From contig JABSQV010000029.1 of the NCBI GenBank assembly GCA_013215565.1, positions 29,219 to 93,218 of the forward strand: a stretch of DNA of 64,000 bases, in the 5' to 3' direction. This DNA is from Myxococcales bacterium. GTDB lineage: Bacteria > Myxococcota_A > UBA9160 > SZUA-336. Made by a program: the position numbers and the translations under genes. Shown one piece after another: positions 45,494-55,552 of the stretch; position 1 is the stretch's first letter, and every line of letters starts with the position of its first letter. The notes below the pieces were generated by a model. The model was not told the DNA's origin. It made no database searches and saw only the letters and a program-made list of their open reading frames with translations.

Positions 45494-48400
45494 TTACTGA
45501 CAGGTGATGTGCACCTCCGCGCCGGGCTCGAAGCCGCGTCCACGACAGCGGTAACCGCCGTTGCGGCGCGTGGAGCAATTGAGATCGCTCGCACTGGCCT
45601 CGCCTGTACTACAGGTCCCGAAGAAGTGAATCCGTCCGCGGCTGTCCGCGGTGGCGGTTGCTTCAGTGTCGGTCGGAGCCGGCGCTGCCGCCGGAGTCTC
45701 AGCCGGAGTCTCAGCCGGGGTCTCCGTTGCGGCCGGAGCCGTGCTCGCCGCAGCTGCGGTGCCACCACTGCAGGTCACGTGGACCAGAGTGCGTGGCTCG
45801 AGGCCTCGGCCTCGGCAGCTGAAGGAGCCCCTGTCCGCCGTGTTGCAGCGCAGGCCGAGTGCCGAAGCCTCGGCGCCCGCGTCGCAGATCCCGCGGATGC
45901 GAAGGCGTCCGCGCAGATCCACGAAGCCGCTGCCTGCCGCCGTCTCGACCGTAACGACCGGATCGGCACTGCCGAGATCGATGTCGAAGCCGGTCACGTC
46001 CTGTGCGTCGTTCAGGCTGGAGTCTCCCACGAGAATCCGCGTCGCCACAGCCGCGTCGCCAACGAGGACGGTCACGATCGTGCTTCCGCTCACCAGCGGT
46101 GCCACGTCGGCACCCCGGATCGAGAACAGCACGTTGACCGCATCCTGCTCGGCCACTCCGCTCGGAAGCGCGGTGATCGGATCCAGGATCTCAATGGCCA
46201 CGATCTCGGCAGCGAACACGCCCGTCACCTGAGTGCCGGCCATGAATCCGACCGAGAAAGCGTCCACCGCGATCTCGTCACCAGGACAGACCTGGGGCAG
46301 CGGGCCGCAGCCCAGAGTCTCGCCCGCGGAGAATGCCGCGTCGAGCCCATTGACGCCTCCGAAGAGGTCGATGTCGACATTCGGGATGGTGACGTCGAAG
46401 CGAGCTAGACCGGGCCGCGAGACATTGAGCACGGTGATCGTGTCGCCGTCGATGTCGCCCGCGTCGCCGTTGAAGTTCGCCACCGGGACCAGTACGTCCA
46501 CGACCGGCGGTGCCGCTGCGATTGCATCGGCCACAGCGGCCTCCGCTGCAGCGACAACGGCCGCGGGAGCACCCGTAGCCTGAGCCACCACCAACGCTGC
46601 AGCCGCGTCGATCTCGGCCACCGTCAGCAGGATCGCCACGTCCTGAGCGTCGTTCACGCTCGAGTCACCGAAGAAGCCCACGCCGTCCGCGACCGGTACG
46701 CCGTCGAGGCTCACGACCGCACGCGTCAGTCCGGTCACCAGCGGTGCCACGTCGGCACCCCGGATCGAGAACAGCACGTTGACCGCGCCCTGGTCGACTT
46801 CGAGCGTCACGGGGTCCGTGATCGCCACGATCTCAGGTCCGAACACGCCGGTCACCTCGGTGGTGACGGAGTCCACGAACATGAGCGTGATGCGATCGAC
46901 CGCGATCTCGTCTTCTCCCAGGATCATCACACCGAAGCCGGTGTTCGTGAACAGGTCCAGATCCACGGCCGGGATGGTCACGTCGAAACGTGCCAGCCCG
47001 GGCCGGGATGCGTTCACGAAGTTGATCGGCGCGAGGTCTGCCGCGACACCATTGAAGTTGGCGTTCGGTACGAGCGCCAGCTCTGCTGCAAGTGCCGCCG
47101 CCGTGTTCGCCGCCGCCGCCGCGTCGTTCGCCGCCGTGAGCGCCGCCGTCGCGGCTGCGATTGCACCCGCGTCGCCGGTGGCCTGTGCGATGAACAGCGT
47201 AGCCGCTGCAGCGATCTGGTCGTCGCTCAGCATGATCAGCACGTCCTGTGCGTCGTTCACGCTCGAGTCCCCGAAGAAGGACTCGGACGCGACTTCCACA
47301 CCGTCCACGGTGAGCGATGCCCGCGTGAGGCCCCGGATCAGGGGTGCCACATCCGCGCCCCGGATCGAGAACAGCACGTTGACCGCGTCCTGGATCACCT
47401 CACCGGTCGGATTACCGGCCGCGTCCAGAACCTGGATCGCCACGATCTCCGAGGTAAAGACCCCGAGGATGGCCGGGCCATTTAGAGTGACGTTCGCGAA
47501 CGTCAGCAGGAAGCTGTCCACCGCGATTTCGTCCTCTGCCACGATCGTCTGGCCGAAGCCCGTGTTCGCGAACAGTGCCAGGGGCACATTCGGAATCGTC
47601 GCATCGATCCGAGCCAGGCCGAGCCGCGAGAGGCTCTCGAAGGTCACGGTGCCGCCGTCGATGTCGGCTGCCGTGCCAAGGAACATGGCCGTCGGGACCG
47701 GCTCGACGAAGGGTGCATTGTTCACGAGTGCGACCGTCACGCCCGTTGCTGAGCCGATGCTCGAGTCACCGAGGAAGAGTGCATTGGCCACCTCTTCGCC
47801 CGTCGAGTTCACCGTCACGCTGACCGTGGTCGGGCCACTCACGAGCGGTAGCACGTCGAAGTCTCGGATCGAGAACAACACGTCTACAATGGTCGCGTCG
47901 AGGAGCACCGGCGGGAAGACCAGTGCATCGCAGACCGCCACGATCTCGGGCGAGAAGGTTCCGGTCACGTTACCGGACGCGTTGTTGGTGAAGGTGACCG
48001 TGATGCCCGTCGTCGCGAGTTCCGCGCCGCAGCCGAAGCCGGCTGCAAAGGGCTCGTCGACGTTCTGACCCGCAACCTGCGGGAAGTCAGCGAGGAGCGC
48101 TGCTGGAATCACGATGTCGAAGCGCGGACCACCGGGAACCGAAGCGTTCTCGAAGGTCGTGCCTGCGCCATCCAGGTCTGCCGCGGTGCCAATGAAGTTG
48201 GCCAGTGGGAGTCCATCGGGGTTGGCGGCCACGGCCCCGTCGGCACCGACCACCGTGACGGGCGCGGAGCGCACCGTCTCGAGGACACCTGCCTCATCCT
48301 GGAAGGTCACCACGACGCGAACCCGGAGGCCGGCCTCTGCCACGGTGACGTCCATGCTCTGGCCGGTGACCCCGATCGGGTCGCCAGTACCGTTGATGCC

Positions 48401-51400
48401 GCCCAGCCGGATGATGTCTTCGAAGACACCGCTTCCAGCCTCGAGCTCGGACTGCCAGACGAAGCTCGCACCGGCGGGATCGACCCCACCCAGCAAGCTC
48501 ACGTTGTCGGCATCCATCACGGCCGAGAGGTCGGCCGTCGCCATACCGTCCACCTGGGGCAGCAGGGGCGAGATGGTGGGCTGGCCCGTTGCCAGGCTGT
48601 TGCCACCGGCCGCGCCGTCGCCGCCAATCTCGAGCGTCACGTCGTCGAACGCCAAGCGCTCGATGTTCTTGACCAGGTCTCGACCGGTGCTTCCGAGTAC
48701 GCGATTGTCGAGAACCTCGATGTAGCCATCGGGGCCAGCGAGCGCATCCGGACCGCCGAACACGTCGTCGACCGTGAGGACGCCCATGGCATCAACCACG
48801 CCCTCGATCGAGTAGTCGGCGAGGTTGCCCGCGAAGGTCGCGGTATCCGTGTCCACGTTCATTGGATCCCGATCGCTGATCGCGCGTGAGATCGAGAGCT
48901 CACCCGGGTTGATCGCACCGGCGAAGATCGCCTGGGCGACGTCCTGCATGCTGTCGACAACGATGATCATCTCGGCTGCATCGAGGGCCGCCTGGGCCGC
49001 TGCGAGGCCCGCGCTTGCATCTGTCACGGCCTGAGCCGCTACGCCTGCATCCACGAGTGCCGCCGCTGCCGCCGCATCCGCCACGACCGAAGCCGCCGCC
49101 GAGGCCACCGCCGCCGCCGCTGAGGCATCTGCCGTCGCTTGGGCTGCCTGTGCATTGTCCGCCGCCGCCTGGGTGGTCAGCGTGGCCGCAGCCAGCGCTG
49201 CCGCCGCATCCGCTGCCGCCTGGGCCGCTCCGGCCGCAGTCGCGTTCGCTGCCGCAAGCGCGGTCTCTGCCGCGACCTCGGCCGCAATCGCATCCGCCGC
49301 CACCTGCGCTGCCGCAAGCTCTGCCGCCGCCGCGGTCGCTGCATCGGCAGCCGCTGCGTCGGAAGCTGTCGCCGCCGCCGCCGAAGCTGCCGCTGCGGCA
49401 TCGGCCATCGCCTGCGCGTCAGCCGCGTTGGCTGCTGCTGCGTCCGAAGTCGCCTGCGCTGCCGCTGCCGCATCCGCTGCCGCCTGGGTCGTCAGAGTGG
49501 CTGCCGCCAGCTCTGCTGCCGCGTCCAATGCGGCCTGTGCCGCCGCTACCGAAGCCGCGTTCGCTGCCGCGAGCGCGGTCTCTGCCGCGACCTCGGCCGC
49601 AATCGCGTCCGCTGCCGCCTGGGCTGCTGCGAGACGTGCTGAATCTGCGTCCGCCGCGGCTGCCTGTGCCGTTGCGAGATCCGCTGCCGCCGCGGCCGAA
49701 ACCACCGCCGCCGCATCCGCAATCGCCTGCGCTGCAGCCGAAGCCGTCGCCGCATCATCGGCCATCGCCTGCTCGGACGCCGCCGCATTCGCCGCTGCAA
49801 CTGCTGCGGCCGAAGCCGCTGCCGCATCCACGATGGCCTGCGCCTCCGCGGCCTGGGCCGCAGCCGAAGCCGCCGCCGCTGCATCTGCAGCCGTCATGGC
49901 GTTCGCTGCCGTTGCTGCGGCCGCGCCCGAAGCCGCTGCCGCCGCATCCGCAGTCACCTGCGCCGCAGCTGCAGCCGCCTGGGTCGCTGCCGCCGCCGTG
50001 GCTGCTGCATCCGCCGCCGCCTGTGCCGTATTGACCTGGGCCTGGGCCGCGTTCGCAGCCGACTGGGCCGCGATCGCGTTCGTGAGGGCCGTCACGAAGT
50101 CACCCTCGCCGCTCGCGATGAACGCGAGCAGGGCTGCCTGCGCTGCGTCGCGCGCATCGAGGGCCGCCTGAAGCGCCGCCTCTGCGCCCGCGAGCACGCC
50201 ATCCGCGTTCGTCTGTGCCGCTGCCGCTGCCGCCGCGTCCGTCGCTGCAGTCGCTGCCGCCGCTGCCGCATTGGCCGCATCGGCCGCGGCCTGATCGGCT
50301 GCCGCCTGGGCTGCACCTGCTGCCGCAGCATCGGCCGCCGCCGCCGTCGCGGCCGCGCTGGCCGCTGCGGTGGTGGCCGCCATCGCGGCATCCGCTGCCG
50401 CCGCTGCGTCAAGGGCTGCCGTCATGGCATTCAGGGCCGCAGCCGCTGCTGGCGCTGCCTGAGCCGCCTCCGCCGCTGCTGCATCGGCCGCCGCCTGTGC
50501 CGCCGCTGCATCGGCCGCTGCCGCGTTCGCGGCTGCCATGGCTGCGCCATCGGCCACTGCCTGCGCTGCGCTGGCGGCATCGAACGCCGTCTGCGCGTCG
50601 AGCGCCGCTTGCGTGGCTGCATCGGTGGCCGCCATCGCCGCGGCCTCTGCCGCGACCGCGTCTGCTGCCGCCGCTGTGGCCGCGGCTGCCGCCGCATCGG
50701 CGTCAGTAGAGTCTACGCCAGCCGCGATGTTCGCATCGGCCGCATTCTGAGCCGCCGCCGTCGCCGCATCGGCCGCTGCCGAAGCGATCGCCTGTGCTGC
50801 GGCCGCGTTCACTGCCGCTGCCGCATCGACGGCCGCTGCCGTTGCCGCGTCTGCCGCCGCTGCTGCCGCCGTAGCTGCCGCTGCGGCTGCCGCATTCTCG
50901 GCCGCAGCCGCGTCAATCGCTGCCAGTGAAGCCGCCTCGGTGGCCGCCATCGCCGCGGACTCTGCCGCGGCCGCTGCTGCTGCCGCCGCATTCGCCACGT
51001 CTTCGGCCGCCATCGCCGCCGCGTCCGTCACGCCGGCAGCGATCTGGGCATCGGCTGCATTTAGCGCGGCCGTCGTGTTTGCAGCCGCTGCTGCCGCATC
51101 AGTCGCGGCCTGCGCCGCGTCCGCGGTCTCCTGAGCGTCCGCCGCTGCCGCTGCCGCCGCCGTCGCGATGACGTTGGCGTCGGCCGCTGCCGAAGCAGCG
51201 GTCGCGTTGTCAAGGTTCTGCTGCGCCGCTGCAGCCTCGATTGCGAGGGGACCGCCAAACCGGACCATGGGGTTCGGGGTCGAGATCCCGACCGCGAGCG
51301 CCGCGTCGCCATCGATGATGTCGTCGCCGAGGTCGCCCTCGATCACGTCGCTGCCGGCGCCGCCGAGCATGAGCTCGCCGCCGGTCCAGCCGAACTGGGT

Positions 51401-54400
51401 CCAGCCGTTCACGGGATCGACCGGAAGGACACGGCGCTCGGTGACGGGGATCATGTCATCCAGGCCATCGATCAGCGAGAAGCCGTCGTGCATGATGGTG
51501 CCACCCGCATTGGTGGCCACCACCAGTTCGTTGCCACCCAGGCCGGCTTCGGTCAGGGCCGCGCCGTTCAGGATGTCGGCATGCGGCGAACCGCTCACGC
51601 CCTCGACCCGGTCGTACCGGTCGGCCACGGTAGCGCTCGAGGGAGGCAGGGTCGGCCGCAGGAAGATGGTCAGGTCGAGATCGATGTCCACGCCTTCGGG
51701 ATTGTTCGCGAAGCTCACCCAGTCGAAACCGAGCTGGCCTTCGACGCGATCGATGCCGGGACCGGCCACGATGATGTCATCGCCGTTTTCCATGTCGGCA
51801 TCGTTGTTGCCGTTGCGGCTGATGAAGACGTCGTTGCCCTTGTGTCCGGGCTCGCCTGCCTCGGCAGCAACACCGAAGTCGCCCTGGAAGAGGTCCTCAC
51901 CGCCGCCCAGGTTCTCCATCCAGTCGTTGCCCTGGCCACCGCGAATGTGACCGAGGAACAGGCCGTCCAGGATGTAGTCGTCGCCGGGTCCAGCGAAGAT
52001 CTCGCCGAGTTCGCTCGGGTTCACGATGAAGTCGTTGCCGTTGTCACCGAAGATCACGTCCTCTTCGTTACCACTGTTGATGGCGTCGTTGCCATCGCCA
52101 CCTTCGATCACGTCCGGACCGCCGAGGTCCGTAATGATGTCATCGCCGGGACCGCCCTCGATCAGGTCGGCGCCGTCGCCGCCCTCGAGCCGGTCGTTAC
52201 CTGCGCGACCCCAGATCGAGTCGTCGCCGATGCCACCGATGATGGTGTCGTTCCCGGACGTGCCGCCGATGGTGTAGTGATCTCCACCGGTCGTCTGCAG
52301 GAACCGCGTCGGATCCGGCACGTTGATGTTGGTCGTGCTCGACGCTGGATCGCGGATCCAGAACGGGAACAGTTCCGACTCGCCCTCGGGATCTACACTC
52401 CCGAGACCATCGTTGAACTGAAGGGTCTGGTCGACCTCCATGATGAAGTTCGGAACCGAGAACACGTTGAGCGAGAGGCTGCCATGGCCTGCCATACCGA
52501 TGTCGGTATTCCGCATGACCAGCGCCGTGAACGAGTTGGACTCGAGTTCATTGAAGAAGTGCGTGTTCGCGGTCCGAGCTACGTAGTAGAAGCGGTCCCC
52601 GATCTCCATGCGCTCGATCTGGTTCTCGAACACGAAGTTGTGCGTCGAGCCCAGGTAGCCACCGAAGGGCTGTCGCTCCTCCGCGAGGCCACCGTTCCAG
52701 AAGTCCACATCTTCGATACCCGTGGTGGGCGTCCCGCCGATGGGGGTTGCATATGCGCCGCGGCTGAAGAGGAAGTCCCGCGCATCGGCCGGAACCGCCG
52801 CAGTGCCGTCACTCCAGCCATTGTTCACGCAGTAGGTCGCCGCGTCAGCCGTGAGCGAACCCACGATCGCGCAGGCCGCCGCACGCTTTCCAGCGTAGGT
52901 CGTGGCTGTCGTGATCGAGTCATGCGTGCCGTAGGCCGCGATGAAGTTCACGAGGCTCGCCTCGTGGCGCAGGTTGTCGCCGTAGTCCATCCAGTGGATG
53001 TAGGGCTTGAGCTGCTCACTCGCGGTGGCCTTGAAGAAGCGCCGCCGGGCCGCGTTCAACGAGGGATTTCCCACGTCACGACCACGCGCGATGTTAATGG
53101 CGCCGAGGTCGAGGGGAAGCCCCACGAGGTTATTCTGCATCGACCCGGTCACGAACTCGTCGATCTCGTTCGCGACAGTCCGGGTGAGACCGCGGATGAC
53201 CGCGCCCGCTGCCACTTCCGGCGAGAGCGTCGGGTTTCCGGCTGCGTCCGAGTTCTGGAACGCGAGCGGGTTCAGGAAGGCCTCGAACAGGCCCAACTGC
53301 TCGCCCGCCCCGGCCGCATTGACTGCGCCCGCATCCACGATCGTATTGAAGTCCGAGTCGAGACGATCGACCGTCTCGGTGAGCATCGAGTGCCCGAAGC
53401 GGTACACGGACTGAGAGAACTCCGCCGTGATCGAGACGTCCACGTTGGTGTGGTGGCCCTCGAAGGCGTCCTTGAGTCCCGAAAGCGTCGGCGCGAACTC
53501 GTCGAACACGATCCGGTTGTACTGCATCTCCGTACCGAAACGTGCGGCCTGGAAGACGCGCTCGCCGTGCCAGTCGAGACCGAGATCATCGATCGCCATC
53601 TTTGCGGTCATCTGGTTCATCAGCGAAGCATCCGTGACCGGGAACGCGAGGTTCAAGGCCGGAATCGCGTCGACGTCCACGTCGAGCCATTCGTTCAGGA
53701 AGGCCAGATCGTTGTCTGCCGCCGCGGAGTCCAGGACCACGCGCTTGACCACGTCCACGAGCCGGTTGTGCTCGGAGTGGAAGATGTGGTGGACCGTGGT
53801 GAGTGCGATGTTCTCGTTGCAGCGCCCGTCTCCACACATGAAGTGGCGTCCGAGCAACTCGTCATCGTACTCGCCCGGGGCCGCCGACTCGCGGATCCCG
53901 CGCGTGACCTGACCGCTGAGCATGTCGGTCCGCGCATTGACCACGGTGTCGGCATCGGGCGTGCCATTCGGGGCCGCCGAGTGGGCCACGTCGAGGAAGA
54001 AGCTGTGCCCGCTGCGAAGCGCGAGGCTCGCATCCACGGGATTGTCCAGGCTGCCCTCGAGCAGCGTCGGCGTGCCGTCCGGGTTGGTGCCGGTCACGAT
54101 CTGCGCAAAGCCGCCCGCACCCTTGATGATGCGACCGTAGATGTCGGTATGGATGTGCGGAATGTTGGCGCCATCCTGGTCATCGAGGTCGATGCCGAGC
54201 ACGGTGCGGGCCTGGTTGCGGATGTCCGCCCAGGTCGACATTCCCATCGGACCGCCCGCCATTCCCGGGGTACCGCCGTTGAGCAAGCGACCGCTGTTCT
54301 CCGGGCTGCCGTTCACCAGTTCGTAGTGGCGGAGCAGCGCGTTCTGGCCGCCGTGCGACCCGTAGGTCTGCTGCTGGTCGACGTGGGGGGTGGTGCGGTT

Positions 54401-55156
54401 CAGGAACTGGCGATTGCCGTCGGCGTCCGTGAACTGCGTGGCCCGAGTCATCGCCATCGAGGCGCCTTCGCCCGGTGCGAAGAGCGGGTCGTCTCCGGGG
54501 ACCGCCATCACCACCGTACCGTTGCCGCCCTTTTCGATCAGGTCGAGACCGTGATCGAAGAACTGCGCGAAGAAGGTCATGTAGGCGTTGGTGGGTGCCG
54601 ACAGACCCTCGTCCGGTGCGGTGTTGGGGATGAAGAACTGGTTGGCGCCGGCGATGTCCGGGCCGATGTCCTCTCCCTCTTCAGCCGCTGCGGTCGCCAC
54701 CGCCGCCGGGTTCTCGGTCGACTGGTTGACGATCAGGTGGCTGATTTGCCGCGGGCTGTTGTCCAGGACGTCGGCGTCGCTGGCGTAAGTCGTCCCTCCG
54801 TCAGCCGCGGGGAACACCTTGTCACCGCTGTCGCTGAAGAACTCGTCGGCCCGGCCGTTGTTTTCCTGGCCGGGGATCAGACTGTTGCAGCTACCGTCCA
54901 CGGTGCGCAGGCCCCAGGGGACGCTTGCGTTCGGGAGGATGCTGAGCAGCGCGTCGCACGATTCGCCTGCCGCGACGTGCGCCTCTGAAAATTCAATTTG
55001 CTTGAGTATGAAATTGAGGTCCGAGCGGTCGAATGCCAGGTCCCCTGAGGCGGACTGGGCAACTGCCATCCCGGACAGCATCGCGGTGGCCAGGAAGGCC
55101 ACCAGGATGGTGAGTCGGGAGAGCAGGCTGAGCGCTCTACTTCTGTCACCGGTCAT
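45494..55156 (-). CDS. Giant (3220 aa) secreted heme peroxidase of the peroxidase-cyclooxygenase superfamily (MopA/peroxicin-like) with RTX Ca-binding repeats, Ala-rich coiled-coil insert and C-terminal repeats
   Basis: GAGGAG RBS + ATG 55156; signal peptide; GLRTVDGSCN, AQFFDHGLD (distal His), DGRCNEN..HSEHNRL, YRFGHSML (proximal His), LDLGAINIARGRD; GGxGxD nonapeptides at about 52270-51700. Confidence 0.92.
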   Translation of the reverse strand: MTGDRSRALSLLSRLTILVAFLATAMLSGMAVAQSASGDLAFDRSDLNFILKQIEFSEAHVAAGESCDALLSILPNASVPWGLRTVDGSCNSLIPGQENNGRADEFFSDSGDKVFPAADGGTTYASDADVLDNSPRQISHLIVNQSTENPAAVATAAAEEGEDIGPDIAGANQFFIPNTAPDEGLSAPTNAYMTFFAQFFDHGLDLIEKGGNGTVVMAVPGDDPLFAPGEGASMAMTRATQFTDADGNRQFLNRTTPHVDQQQTYGSHGGQNALLRHYELVNGSPENSGRLLNGGTPGMAGGPMGMSTWADIRNQARTVLGIDLDDQDGANIPHIHTDIYGRIIKGAGGFAQIVTGTNPDGTPTLLEGSLDNPVDASLALRSGHSFFLDVAHSAAPNGTPDADTVVNARTDMLSGQVTRGIRESAAPGEYDDELLGRHFMCGDGRCNENIALTTVHHIFHSEHNRLVDVVKRVVLDSAAADNDLAFLNEWLDVDVDAIPALNLAFPVTDASLMNQMTAKMAIDDLGLDWHGERVFQAARFGTEMQYNRIVFDEFAPTLSGLKDAFEGHHTNVDVSITAEFSQSVYRFGHSMLTETVDRLDSDFNTIVDAGAVNAAGAGEQLGLFEAFLNPLAFQNSDAAGNPTLSPEVAAGAVIRGLTRTVANEIDEFVTGSMQNNLVGLPLDLGAINIARGRDVGNPSLNAARRRFFKATASEQLKPYIHWMDYGDNLRHEASLVNFIAAYGTHDSITTATTYAGKRAAACAIVGSLTADAATYCVNNGWSDGTAAVPADARDFLFSRGAYATPIGGTPTTGIEDVDFWNGGLAEERQPFGGYLGSTHNFVFENQIERMEIGDRFYYVARTANTHFFNELESNSFTALVMRNTDIGMAGHGSLSLNVFSVPNFIMEVDQTLQFNDGLGSVDPEGESELFPFWIRDPASSTTNINVPDPTRFLQTTGGDHYTIGGTSGNDTIIGGIGDDSIWGRAGNDRLEGGDGADLIEGGPGDDIITDLGGPDVIEGGDGNDAINSGNEEDVIFGDNGNDFIVNPSELGEIFAGPGDDYILDGLFLGHIRGGQGNDWMENLGGGEDLFQGDFGVAAEAGEPGHKGNDVFISRNGNNDADMENGDDIIVAGPGIDRVEGQLGFDWVSFANNPEGVDIDLDLTIFLRPTLPPSSATVADRYDRVEGVSGSPHADILNGAALTEAGLGGNELVVATNAGGTIMHDGFSLIDGLDDMIPVTERRVLPVDPVNGWTQFGWTGGELMLGGAGSDVIEGDLGDDIIDGDAALAVGISTPNPMVRFGGPLAIEAAAAQQNLDNATAASAAADANVIATAAAAAAADAQETADAAQAATDAAAAAANTTAALNAADAQIAAGVTDAAAMAAEDVANAAAAAAAAAESAAMAATEAASLAAIDAAAAENAAAAAAATAAAAAADAATAAAVDAAAAVNAAAAQAIASAAADAATAAAQNAADANIAAGVDSTDADAAAAAATAAAADAVAAEAAAMAATDAATQAALDAQTAFDAASAAQAVADGAAMAAANAAAADAAAAQAAADAAAAEAAQAAPAAAAALNAMTAALDAAAAADAAMAATTAAASAAATAAAADAAAAGAAQAAADQAAADAANAAAAAATAATDAAAAAAAQTNADGVLAGAEAALQAALDARDAAQAALLAFIASGEGDFVTALTNAIAAQSAANAAQAQVNTAQAAADAAATAAAATQAAAAAAQVTADAAAAASGAAAATAANAMTAADAAAAASAAAQAAEAQAIVDAAAASAAAVAAANAAASEQAMADDAATASAAAQAIADAAAVVSAAAAADLATAQAAAADADSARLAAAQAAADAIAAEVAAETALAAANAASVAAAQAALDAAAELAAATLTTQAAADAAAAAQATSDAAAANAADAQAMADAAAAASAAAATASDAAAADAATAAAAELAAAQVAADAIAAEVAAETALAAANATAAGAAQAAADAAAALAAATLTTQAAADNAQAAQATADASAAAAVASAAASVVADAAAAAALVDAGVAAQAVTDASAGLAAAQAALDAAEMIIVVDSMQDVAQAIFAGAINPGELSISRAISDRDPMNVDTDTATFAGNLADYSIEGVVDAMGVLTVDDVFGGPDALAGPDGYIEVLDNRVLGSTGRDLVKNIERLAFDDVTLEIGGDGAAGGNSLATGQPTISPLLPQVDGMATADLSAVMDADNVSLLGGVDPAGASFVWQSELEAGSGVFEDIIRLGGINGTGDPIGVTGQSMDVTVAEAGLRVRVVVTFQDEAGVLETVRSAPVTVVGADGAVAANPDGLPLANFIGTAADLDGAGTTFENASVPGGPRFDIVIPAALLADFPQVAGQNVDEPFAAGFGCGAELATTGITVTFTNNASGNVTGTFSPEIVAVCDALVFPPVLLDATIVDVLFSIRDFDVLPLVSGPTTVSVTVNSTGEEVANALFLGDSSIGSATGVTVALVNNAPFVEPVPTAMFLGTAADIDGGTVTFESLSRLGLARIDATIPNVPLALFANTGFGQTIVAEDEIAVDSFLLTFANVTLNGPAILGVFTSEIVAIQVLDAAGNPTGEVIQDAVNVLFSIRGADVAPLIRGLTRASLTVDGVEVASESFFGDSSVNDAQDVLIMLSDDQIAAAATLFIAQATGDAGAIAAATAALTAANDAAAAANTAAALAAELALVPNANFNGVAADLAPINFVNASRPGLARFDVTIPAVDLDLFTNTGFGVMILGEDEIAVDRITLMFVDSVTTEVTGVFGPEIVAITDPVTLEVDQGAVNVLFSIRGADVAPLVTGLTRAVVSLDGVPVADGVGFFGDSSVNDAQDVAILLTVAEIDAAAALVVAQATGAPAAVVAAAEAAVADAIAAAPPVVDVLVPVANFNGDAGDIDGDTITVLNVSRPGLARFDVTIPNVDIDLFGGVNGLDAAFSAGETLGCGPLPQVCPGDEIAVDAFSVGFMAGTQVTGVFAAEIVAIEILDPITALPSGVAEQDAVNVLFSIRGADVAPLVSGSTIVTVLVGDAAVATRILVGDSSLNDAQDVTGFDIDLGSADPVVTVETAAGSGFVDLRGRLRIRGICDAGAEASALGLRCNTADRGSFSCRGRGLEPRTLVHVTCSGGTAAAASTAPAATETPAETPAETPAAAPAPTDTEATATADSRGRIHFFGTCSTGEASASDLNCSTRRNGGYRCRGRGFEPGAEVHITCQ
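48968..51250 (-). repeat. Ala-rich low-complexity coiled-coil region with internal 315-nt duplications
   Basis: 760 codons, mostly Ala; duplicated segments offset by 315 nt at 49261/49576 and 50626/50941. Confidence 0.9.
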
Positions 55157-55552
55157 ATTCTTCTCCTCGGCTGGGTCGTTCGCCCGTTTCGGGCGGGCCA
55201 TTGGGTTTCGGTTGCTTGCGAATTCACGGAATCTCCACTGGGGTCGAATGGCCCCAGTTCTGAAAACCGCGGGTATATGGCCATAGTGCACCATCAAAGT
55301 CAAGCATTCCTGGTGAATTACCCCCATTTTATTTCTTGATGCACATCTCCGTTGGATTTATTGGGATGTTTTGCGCGCAGCTTGCGGAGATCGTGTCTAA
55401 AACACCACAAATCTCGAACCGGCAACCGCTGGCCGAGGCGCCTCCAGAGAGCTCGTGGCGCGCGGATTCCCGGGTCGAGGGGGGGCCCGGACCCGAGCTC
55501 CGCCAGGCGGCGGTCGCGTGGCCCCGGGTCCGTCCTCTAAGCTCCGCTTCGC

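Follow-up and report, generated by a model that had tools for sequence, protein, structure and literature searches.

Known helical hairpins and an insert in a peroxidase gene

SMC proteins, chemoreceptors, and dynein all contain long antiparallel coiled coils that form within one chain. Here we describe a 761-residue, alanine-rich block that probably folds into such a hairpin within a bacterial enzyme. The block is encoded in a 64,000-nucleotide stretch of contig JABSQV010000029.1 from a Myxococcales bacterium (GenBank assembly GCA_013215565.1); "the window" below means this whole stretch. The gene is a single open reading frame (ORF), and its 3277-aa product is probably a secreted heme peroxidase, judging from a leader read by eye. 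This product is laid out as an animal-type heme peroxidase, RTX repeats, the alanine-rich insert, a conserved domain that follows it (the C flank), repeated C-terminal modules, and two small Cys-rich domains (Table 1). A sequence-only reading of the DNA had proposed an out-and-back helical hairpin, placed in a loop of the peroxidase and extended by matched duplications in both arms, and had suggested that it might be a spacer, a molecular ruler, or a filament-assembly element. We consider that a structured insert forming an intramolecular antiparallel helical hairpin is likely, and we infer its helicity, antiparallel contact, rigidity, oligomeric state, and function from the sequence.

The arms of SMC, Rad50, and MukB are about 50 nm long; each is an antiparallel coiled coil formed within one chain, and its tip is specialized. 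The stalk in the window resembles them in length, but it has no ATPase head or hinge (Pfam), and those proteins are cytoplasmic, handle DNA, and have an ordinary coiled-coil composition. The arms of chemoreceptors (methyl-accepting chemotaxis proteins, MCPs) are said to change length together, as Alexander and Zhulin reportedly described in 2007. Their signalling hairpins fall into length classes of 12–32 heptad pairs that span 126–336 Å, at about 10.5 Å per pair (PMC6628036). The stalk is similar in its intramolecular antiparallel helical hairpin (predicted here), its conserved tip, and its discrete length classes. Unlike an MCP, to which its sequence is unrelated, it is a loop insert of a secreted enzyme, with 60% alanine and about 54 paired heptads, far above the range given for MCPs, and bundling into four helices is here only a rival reading. 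The MCPsignal profile did not match the whole protein (E ≤ 0.01) or 13 homologous inserts of about 365 aa (the 365 class, described below; E ≤ 0.1).

Close packing of alanine-rich helices has its own precedents. The original definition of the Alacoil is reportedly that of Gernert and colleagues from 1995. Alacoil faces have been described (10.1101/503698), and a fixed alanine once per heptad on antiparallel helices corresponds to Alacoil or alanine-zipper packing (10.1101/503698; PMC12284834). For honeybee silk, a model arranges an alanine-rich coiled coil of about 210 aa as an antiparallel tetramer 24.3 nm long, whose core positions hold most of the alanine (PMC12284834). The stalk shares with these the small alanine at fixed heptad positions, which permits tight antiparallel packing. 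However, those are short motifs or separate chains, whereas here one chain would supply both helices from inside an enzyme, and by its predicted geometry each stalk helix would be more than twice the length of the silk coil. In antigen I/II, an alanine-rich helix runs outward and a second region runs back, so that a head domain is projected from the anchor (PMC3178794). This out-and-back stalk in one polypeptide is similar to ours, and a stalk with a 76-aa tip domain in a paralogue of our gene is similar on paper. However, the return of antigen I/II is a polyproline helix and the protein is a Gram-positive, wall-anchored adhesin, while both arms in the window are alanine-rich heptads without a head domain. 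The stalk is a member of none of the MCP, antigen I/II, and SMC systems.

The host protein shares the architecture of the MopA-type "long peroxicin", which joins an animal heme peroxidase domain to hemolysin-type Ca-binding repeats (PMC6247904); Pfam places both in our one long protein. A PERCAL motif, G-x-D-G-x-x-[GN]-[TN]-x-D-D, has been reported within the peroxidase domain of MopA-type peroxicins (PMC3396595). Inserts of the present kind are unmentioned in the available text of these two papers on bacterial-peroxidase architecture, supplements excluded: "alanine" occurs zero times in PMC6247904, and "alanine", "helix", and "helical" occur zero times in PMC3396595. Our literature searches returned no description of such an insert, and we found none of a rod of about 55 nm in a surface loop of a secreted enzyme.

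A probable stalk family with equal arms

The positions given by the sequence-only reading all fall on the residues expected of them: 51250 is P1360, 48968–48970 is M2120, 50110 is G1740, 50941 and 50626 are T1463 and T1568, and 49576 and 49261 are A1918 and A2023. The alanine-rich block in the heme peroxidase comprises residues 1360–2120, of which 456 of 761 (60%) are alanine, and the turn motif LLAFIASGEGDFVTAL was located within it (Table 1). The block holds 59 Asp, 19 Glu, no Lys, and 2 Arg (78 acidic versus 2 basic residues), for a net charge near −76. G+C climbs to 75% across the insert. All four alanine codons are used, the longest single-codon run being 4 and the longest poly-alanine run 9; the insert is not a simple repeat. 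Across the 3.8-Mb assembly, stretches of 100 aa with at least 50% alanine are confined to this gene, together with the antisense frame of its insert, and to the paralogue. Searches of the PDB with the insert, the C flank, and a profile of 13 inserts gave nothing below E = 0.38, and Pfam gave nothing meaningful on 13 inserts of the 365 class (E ≤ 0.1). As a side observation, Asp codon usage switches in the insert, with GAT:GAC at 36:23 versus 52:171 in the remainder of the gene. Long antisense open frames also overlie the insert (49015–50034, 49155–50171, and 50215–50709 on the forward strand), one of them more than 50% alanine; they are taken to be by-products of GC-rich alanine codons and not genes.

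To place the insert among homologues, the 286-aa domain after the block was used as a query against 5.8 billion clustered proteins, 1.84 billion cluster representatives, 185,579 species genomes, and JGI metagenomes, and both flanks were located by small profiles made from the first matches. This gave 158 flank pairs, of which 138 were distinct after 20 had been removed as duplicates or for a C flank below 200 aa. The sequence-only reading had held that the two flanks resemble one contiguous segment of MopA-type peroxidases, and contiguity was borne out in homologues: in 103 of the 138, including Pseudomonas and Erythrobacteraceae genomes, the linker is 0–40 aa (mostly 9–10). In most homologues, the insert thus takes the place of a linker that is about 1–17 aa long. 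The other linkers fall into discrete classes, with 11 homologues at 160–210 aa, 2 at 285–295 aa, 21 at 350–370 aa, and the window alone at 770 aa. Forms without an insert include genomes labelled Pseudomonas, Ectopseudomonas, Halomonas, Paracoccus, and Pontixanthobacter, and insert-bearing forms from metagenome-assembled genomes (MAGs) labelled Myxococcota, "Deltaproteobacteria UBA4427", Gammaproteobacteria, and Pseudomonadales. When the C flanks were put through a quick maximum-likelihood analysis, the 35 insert-bearing rows grouped together in a single clade of 49 (Shimodaira–Hasegawa-like approximate likelihood ratio test, SH-aLRT, 99), whose other 14 rows are insert-less; the window branches alone within this clade.

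Common motifs mark the base of the stalk in all classes, TP[ND]PxxRxG on the outward side and AALPx5[IL][IL]VxxMxD on the return. Because base and tip motifs align across classes, the inserts look like length variants of a single homologous module; with the common clade, this points to one origin for the insert family. Judged in this way, the stalk in the window is the longest and most alanine-rich member of what reads as one homologous stalk family. Its tip has neither the Cys pair nor the longer loop seen in 365-class tips (ALLALIDCGG...C...AAF) and in the fragment P0012. The only other strongly alanine-rich relatives of the insert are P0012, P0022, and L060, whose contigs begin inside it. 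About 272 aa separate the tip motif of P0012 from its C flank, a spacing that hints at a class of about 550 aa, none complete so far. When P0012 was compared with arm 2 of the window in search of a clean 105-aa gap, only a fragmentary alignment was obtained.

Whether the two arms change length together bears most directly on a hairpin. In 14 of 15 sequences of the 365 class, arm 1 measures 181 aa, the loop (Cys-x7-10-Cys) 9–12 aa in all, and arm 2 172–174 aa; the exception, P0004 (356 aa), is without the Cys pair and has a comparable motif at its centre. The distance from the PNP motif to the first Cys is exactly 181 residues in 28 sequences (20 distinct), at a median identity of 32% and a minimum of 17%. 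For the 290 class, the lengths are 142, 10, and 138 aa, and for L070 (203 aa) they are 78, 47, and 78 aa by eye. With ends defined by profile, the window has an arm 1 of 388 aa, a tip of 5 aa, and an arm 2 of 377 aa. Arm lengths thus co-vary in homologues (78/78, 142/138, 181/174, and 388/377), and an asymmetric form, which had been named beforehand as refuting, was not found. Across the classes and the paralogue's stalk, the two arm lengths are almost perfectly correlated (r = 0.9997), and they never differ by more than 11 residues. The N-side arm is longer by 4–11 residues in the three longer classes, which fits a non-helical PNPxVRxG start. The claim that the turn sits at the exact midpoint held in part. 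With P1360 and M2120 as ends, the arms are 380 and 380 residues, as had been stated; with the profile-defined ends, 1351–2120, the turn lies 4.5 residues off centre. The turn of the 365 class is likewise off centre, by about 3–4 residues.

The arms, predicted to be helical, follow a heptad pattern. Coiled-coil-like heptads are coherent over both arms, in one unbroken frame of 52 and 53 heptads with no frame shift seen. The alanine/non-alanine pattern is strongest at exactly 3.5 residues (power 1.99 versus a shuffle mean of 0.24; 0 of 500 shuffles equal), and the large hydrophobics (LIVMF) share this period (their power, too, was equalled by 0 of 500 shuffles). Multiples of seven account for ten of the 15 best offsets at which the insert matches itself. 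In arm 2, one heptad position is occupied by alanine in 49 of the 53 heptads, 30 of them in succession (the longest run in 1000 shuffles was 21); arm 1 has two such positions, spaced by three residues, with alanine in 42 and 40 of its 52 heptads. A comparable arrangement is found in the 365 class: nine conserved alanines of arm 2 (in at least 80% of 17 sequences) stand at multiples of 7, all in one frame, and 10 of 14 conserved alanines of arm 1 stand in two frames 3 or 4 residues apart. Two hallmarks of the Alacoil, a 3.5-residue periodicity and alanine at a fixed heptad position of each arm, are therefore seen in the sequence. For alanine, the insert shows no enrichment at a period of 3.6, 3.67, or 11 (231 and 391 of 500 shuffles are as high at 3.67 and 11, respectively).

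Two other kinds of alanine-rich or single-helix protein were considered and rejected. The Maxi-type alanine-rich antifreeze hairpin has an 11-residue (3.67) periodicity, and alanine power in the insert at 3.67 and 11 is no better than in shuffles. Single alpha-helix (SAH) domains are rich in Glu, Lys, and Arg (PMC5347031), and the 761 residues here include 0 Lys, 2 Arg, and 19 Glu.

The arms also carry traces of how they may have grown. The duplication in arm 2, with an offset of 105 aa (15 heptads), is strong, with 102 of 120 nt matching versus a codon-shuffle maximum of 79–91 (20 shuffles). Its copies share 21 non-alanine identities per 60 aa versus a shuffle maximum of at most 8 (300 shuffles), and over 70 codons, 35 are identical, 23 differ synonymously, and 12 differ non-synonymously. 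A duplication with the same 105-aa offset is real in arm 1, weak and old: it is detectable only through non-alanine amino-acid identities, of which there are 10 per 60 aa (0 of 300 shuffles reach 10). The two duplications are matched in position, as had been claimed, with block centres 223 and 219.5 aa from the tip. In a simple simulation, random agreement of block heights within 3 aa occurs at about 0.035, and the shared period is an extra coincidence. A further copy in arm 1 at an offset of 84 aa did not survive scrutiny: it gives 6 identities per 60 aa, within the shuffle range of 5–9, and its excess is part of the general excess of multiples of 7.

Adjacent entry and exit points, equal arms, an unbroken heptad frame, and mirrored duplications together favour a two-helix rod as the best reading. 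The insert would leave the protein after the last RTX repeat and re-enter it a few residues away. A helix of about 375 residues would lead to a short hydrophobic turn and then to a second helix of equal length, and both would pack antiparallel along their alanine seams as an alanine-zipper or "Alacoil"-like coiled coil. The resulting rod would be strongly acidic and about 55–57 nm long, the upper figure following from about 54 paired heptads at about 10.5 Å each (PMC6628036). In the family as a whole, predicted stalk lengths are about 12, 21, 26, and 57 nm, with bases and tips conserved. Growth may have proceeded by internal duplications matched in both arms, one 15-heptad pair of which would still be visible.

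Alternative readings and possible roles

Several observations weigh against the hairpin. Hydrophobic positions were tested for mirror symmetry, and in most of 15 inserts no significant signal emerged (for the window, 21 of 200 shuffles are as high), and by eye, the Gly/Pro positions of the two window arms mirror poorly. Among 17 sequences of the 365 class, antiparallel covariation between the arms did not exceed that of a parallel control; this null is not counted against the hairpin because 17 sequences are too few. For the polar-residue indicator, the 3.5 periodicity is weak in arm 1 of the window (27 of 300 shuffles as high) and absent in the arms of the class of about 175 aa and of the paralogue. 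The bulky residues of arm 1 lie off the alanine seam, where they may form a second interface or reflect a loose pattern. No conserved gene neighbours were found, and nothing there bears on function. On the side of the DNA, the whole insert is spanned by no single contig piece from public sequencing runs, and two weak contig joints lie within the duplicated parts of the arms (X5, 49228 to 49605, side 21; X3, 50267 to 50814, side 26, depth 4.4). These joints skip 376 nt in arm 2 (with 40 other letters between) and 546 nt in arm 1; they may be repeat noise or strain variants with shorter arms.

Such breaks could mean that the insert owes its length, or its duplications, to misassembly of a GC-rich repeat, the genome being metagenome-assembled. 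The genome assembly is in 154 contigs, the public-run contigs break near repeats, and the three alanine-rich relatives are themselves fragments that start inside the insert. However, the stretch or part of it occurs in 20 public runs from 10 studies (marine sediment, vent, seawater, and cold-seep metagenomes), one of which may be the source sample of the assembly. Contigs from 4 of 4 runs (four studies) carry the same sequence over 30 of 30 bins with no indels listed; 38 of their 66 pieces are at least 99% alike and the others 95–99%. Pieces cross the junction between the arm-2 copies (49262–49601), and a single 1934-nt contig spans 49577–51500 except for 67 nt at 51130–51196, skipped as repeat. 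The arm-2 copies match at 78% only (Tandem Repeats Finder, TRF), and therefore short reads can separate them. We regard an artefact as extremely improbable. Accepting the DNA as real leaves the question of how the chain behaves, and a block that is 60% alanine with almost no large hydrophobics, no Pfam family, and no significant PDB match could be a flexible, disordered, or transiently helical low-complexity tether whose symmetry is structurally meaningless. The uninformative mirror and covariation tests would suit such a tether. However, it would not be expected to hold a single heptad frame over 52 and 53 heptads, to keep arm length exactly at 17–32% identity, to have central tips in every class and mirrored duplications, or to have arm-2 duplicates that differ mostly by synonymous changes; we think a tether improbable.

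If the arms are helical, they might pair with other chains, domain-swapped or parallel, in an open loop or network. Nothing direct favours this, though the lack of detectable arm-to-arm covariation would be compatible with it. Entry and exit are typically about 9–10 residues apart in insert-less homologues, and equal arms in all classes would be needless if the arms were unpaired; pairing between chains therefore seems slightly less credible still than a tether. A different possibility refines the hairpin instead of excluding it: two hairpins from two molecules would form an antiparallel four-helix bundle and act as a dimerization or fibre element. Alanine-rich antiparallel bundles with narrow alanine faces and wider faces are known (10.1101/503698; PMC12284834), chemoreceptor hairpins come in paired-heptad length classes (PMC6628036), and arm 1 has bulky residues (11 and 8 of 52) in addition to its alanine seam. 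However, the off-seam positions of arm 1 are as often polar (17) as bulky (11, 8), with no consistent second hydrophobic face, and a net charge near −76 per insert opposes self-association unless cations bridge the rods. The four-helix arrangement is thus rather unlikely, well below the hairpin itself in our estimate. A cation- or mineral-binding rod is a further alternative.

Returning to the single-chain hairpin, what it would do for the enzyme can be proposed with less assurance. The stalk may serve as a stiff, acidic stand-off arm that fixes the distance of the enzyme body from the target of its tip, be it the cell surface, the matrix, or another subunit; we put this forward tentatively, as a role that is quite possible and still short of likely. 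A reach arm of fixed length is favoured because length is exact within a class, the tip is conserved, and the paralogue has a binding-type domain on its tip. More speculative, and in our view doubtful, is the idea that the stalks are length-quantized molecular rulers (about 12, 21, 26, and 57 nm) that set the peroxidase-to-surface distance and are lengthened by compensating, mirrored, whole-heptad duplications in both arms. Relatives of these peroxidases oxidize Mn(II). If the reading holds, a peroxidase, possibly oxidant- or mineral-producing, would be held at a fixed distance, and the stalk offers a handle on where and how large marine peroxidases are held extracellularly. The mirrored duplications would be a visible record of paired-hairpin growth; with exactly kept arms and matching duplications, this natural length series makes testable how paired helical arms lengthen without loss of register. 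A core of alanine only, with almost no large hydrophobics, tests ideas on coiled-coil cohesion. At 57 nm, the polyanionic, 60% alanine form would rank with the longest single-chain antiparallel coiled coils known to us, and the family would be a natural scaffold series for protein engineering.

Host gene, paralogue, and other inserts

Pfam identified An_peroxidase (PF03098; E 8.1e-50, 170 bits versus a cut-off of 25) and HemolysinCabind (E 3.6e-13) in the whole 3277-aa protein and nothing else at E ≤ 0.01. The peroxidase motifs QFFDHGLDL, GDGRCNEN, and YRFGHSML match QFLDHDLDL, GDVRSNEQ, and YRVGHTML of the solved chain 8s6c_A. These three are the motifs of the distal His, the catalytic Arg, and the proximal His. 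Likeness to NCBIfam RTX toxin/hemolysin families is confined to the Ca-binding repeats, and the cut-offs of NF033943 and NF033203 were missed (23 bits versus 1000 and 29.6 versus 2000). The C flank is without a Pfam family and, in a PDB sequence search, without a solved relative. The longest ORF begins 57 codons upstream of M58 (55157–55327, reverse strand), and the shorter form that starts at M58 is suggested because the paralogue starts with a similar leader. The gene is patchy in distribution: it turned up in 1 of the 41 relatives' genomes searched and in 5 of 301 from this phylum (the window's own genome counted in both). The exact protein is absent from a collection of 15 billion proteins under three possible starts.

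Table 1. Position of the stalk and of the other features of the peroxidase gene in the window, with the paralogue from the same genome (positions are those of the window unless another contig is named).
Feature	Coordinates	Strand	Basis or remark
Whole gene, 3277 aa	45494..55327	−	Single ORF; ORF list and translation
Probable true start M58 and Sec-type signal peptide MTGDRSRALSLLSRLTILVAFLATAMLSGMAVAQ	55055..55156	−	By eye from translation; similar leader on paralogue
Heme peroxidase region, residues ~100–990	52358..55030	−	Pfam; alignment to solved chain named as lactoperoxidase
RTX (hemolysin-type Ca-binding) repeats and N flank, ending GDDIIDGDAALAVGIS	51293..52285	−	Pfam HemolysinCabind; N-flank profile fits homologues
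N-side base of stalk, TPNPMVRFGG	51251..51280	−	TP[ND]PxxRxG in every insert class shown, not in insert-less forms shown
Arm 1 (outward helix, putative), residues 1360–1732	50132..51250	−	52 heptads in one frame; 3.5-residue periodicity
Arm-1 unit copy A, residues 1413–1475	50903..51091	−	Offset 105 aa
Arm-1 unit copy B, residues 1518–1580	50588..50776	−	Offset 105 aa
Tip LLAFIASGEGDFVTAL, residues 1733–1748	50084..50131	−	Aligns with tips of 365 class and P0012
Arm 2 (return helix, putative), residues 1749–2120	48968..50083	−	53 heptads in one frame
Tandem duplication in arm 2 (residues 1863–2057), 1.9 copies of a 315-nt (105-aa) period	49158..49740	−	TRF
C flank, conserved domain starting IIVVDSMQDVAQAIFAGAINPGELSISRAI	48128..48967	−	309 representatives at E ≤ 0.001
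Two small C-terminal Cys-rich domains, Pro/Thr-rich linker	45497..45955	−	Translation
Paralogue, 2039 aa	L003 7637..13756 = G000:C112 (same genome, outside window)	−	

The paralogue is the sole one in the genome. It is 70% identical in its peroxidase and RTX parts (residues 68–972 of the host protein are 70% identical to it) and has no insert at the site used in the window. It carries instead a separate 328-aa alanine-rich insert, which sits in another loop where the peroxidase region ends. The arms of this stalk, 125 and 127 residues long, flank a 76-aa tip domain that contains Cys and is akin to the C-terminal domain of the window protein: the second C-terminal Cys-rich domain resembles the paralogue's tip domain at 37% over 59 aa. 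Both arms of the paralogue carry an ADPAAVA.AQAASDAA motif at similar heights, and the fragment P0020 shows an arm at the paralogue's insertion site. The occurrence of alanine-rich hairpins, as we read them, at two other loop sites suggests a reusable insert module.

The C-terminal region of the host protein shows some minor features. Its Cys-rich domains, which have no Pfam match, read GRLRIRGICD...C...C...C and GRIHFFGTC... and are joined through a TETPAETPAETPAAAPAP linker; a 12-nt repeat was marked by TRF at 45690–45724. Between the repeated C-terminal modules lie two alanine-rich stretches of about 45–50 aa (47078–47227 and 46493–46627, reverse strand). By eye they resemble helix-turn-helix linkers, e.g., QIAAAATLFIAQATGDAGAIAAATAALTAAN, and they are like linkers in P0003 and P0004; TRF marks 47094–47149 within one of them.

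Alanine-rich inserts were also noticed elsewhere. At a third site, in the N-terminal part of the peroxidase domain, Pseudomonas-type homologues carry an insert of about 170 aa between NPAAVIAALDYAG and IPNVAPDEGLSAP (the L030 ORF from 7043, residues ~147–324; also L029, L038, L086, and L088). It has a central hydrophobic-turn motif like the tip in the window. Finally, a 3172-aa ORF from a Hyphomicrobiales MAG (L034) is alanine-rich over more than 500 aa (residues ~440–1000), with apparent tandem repeats of about 100 aa (QAEFDAA/QGEYDAA).

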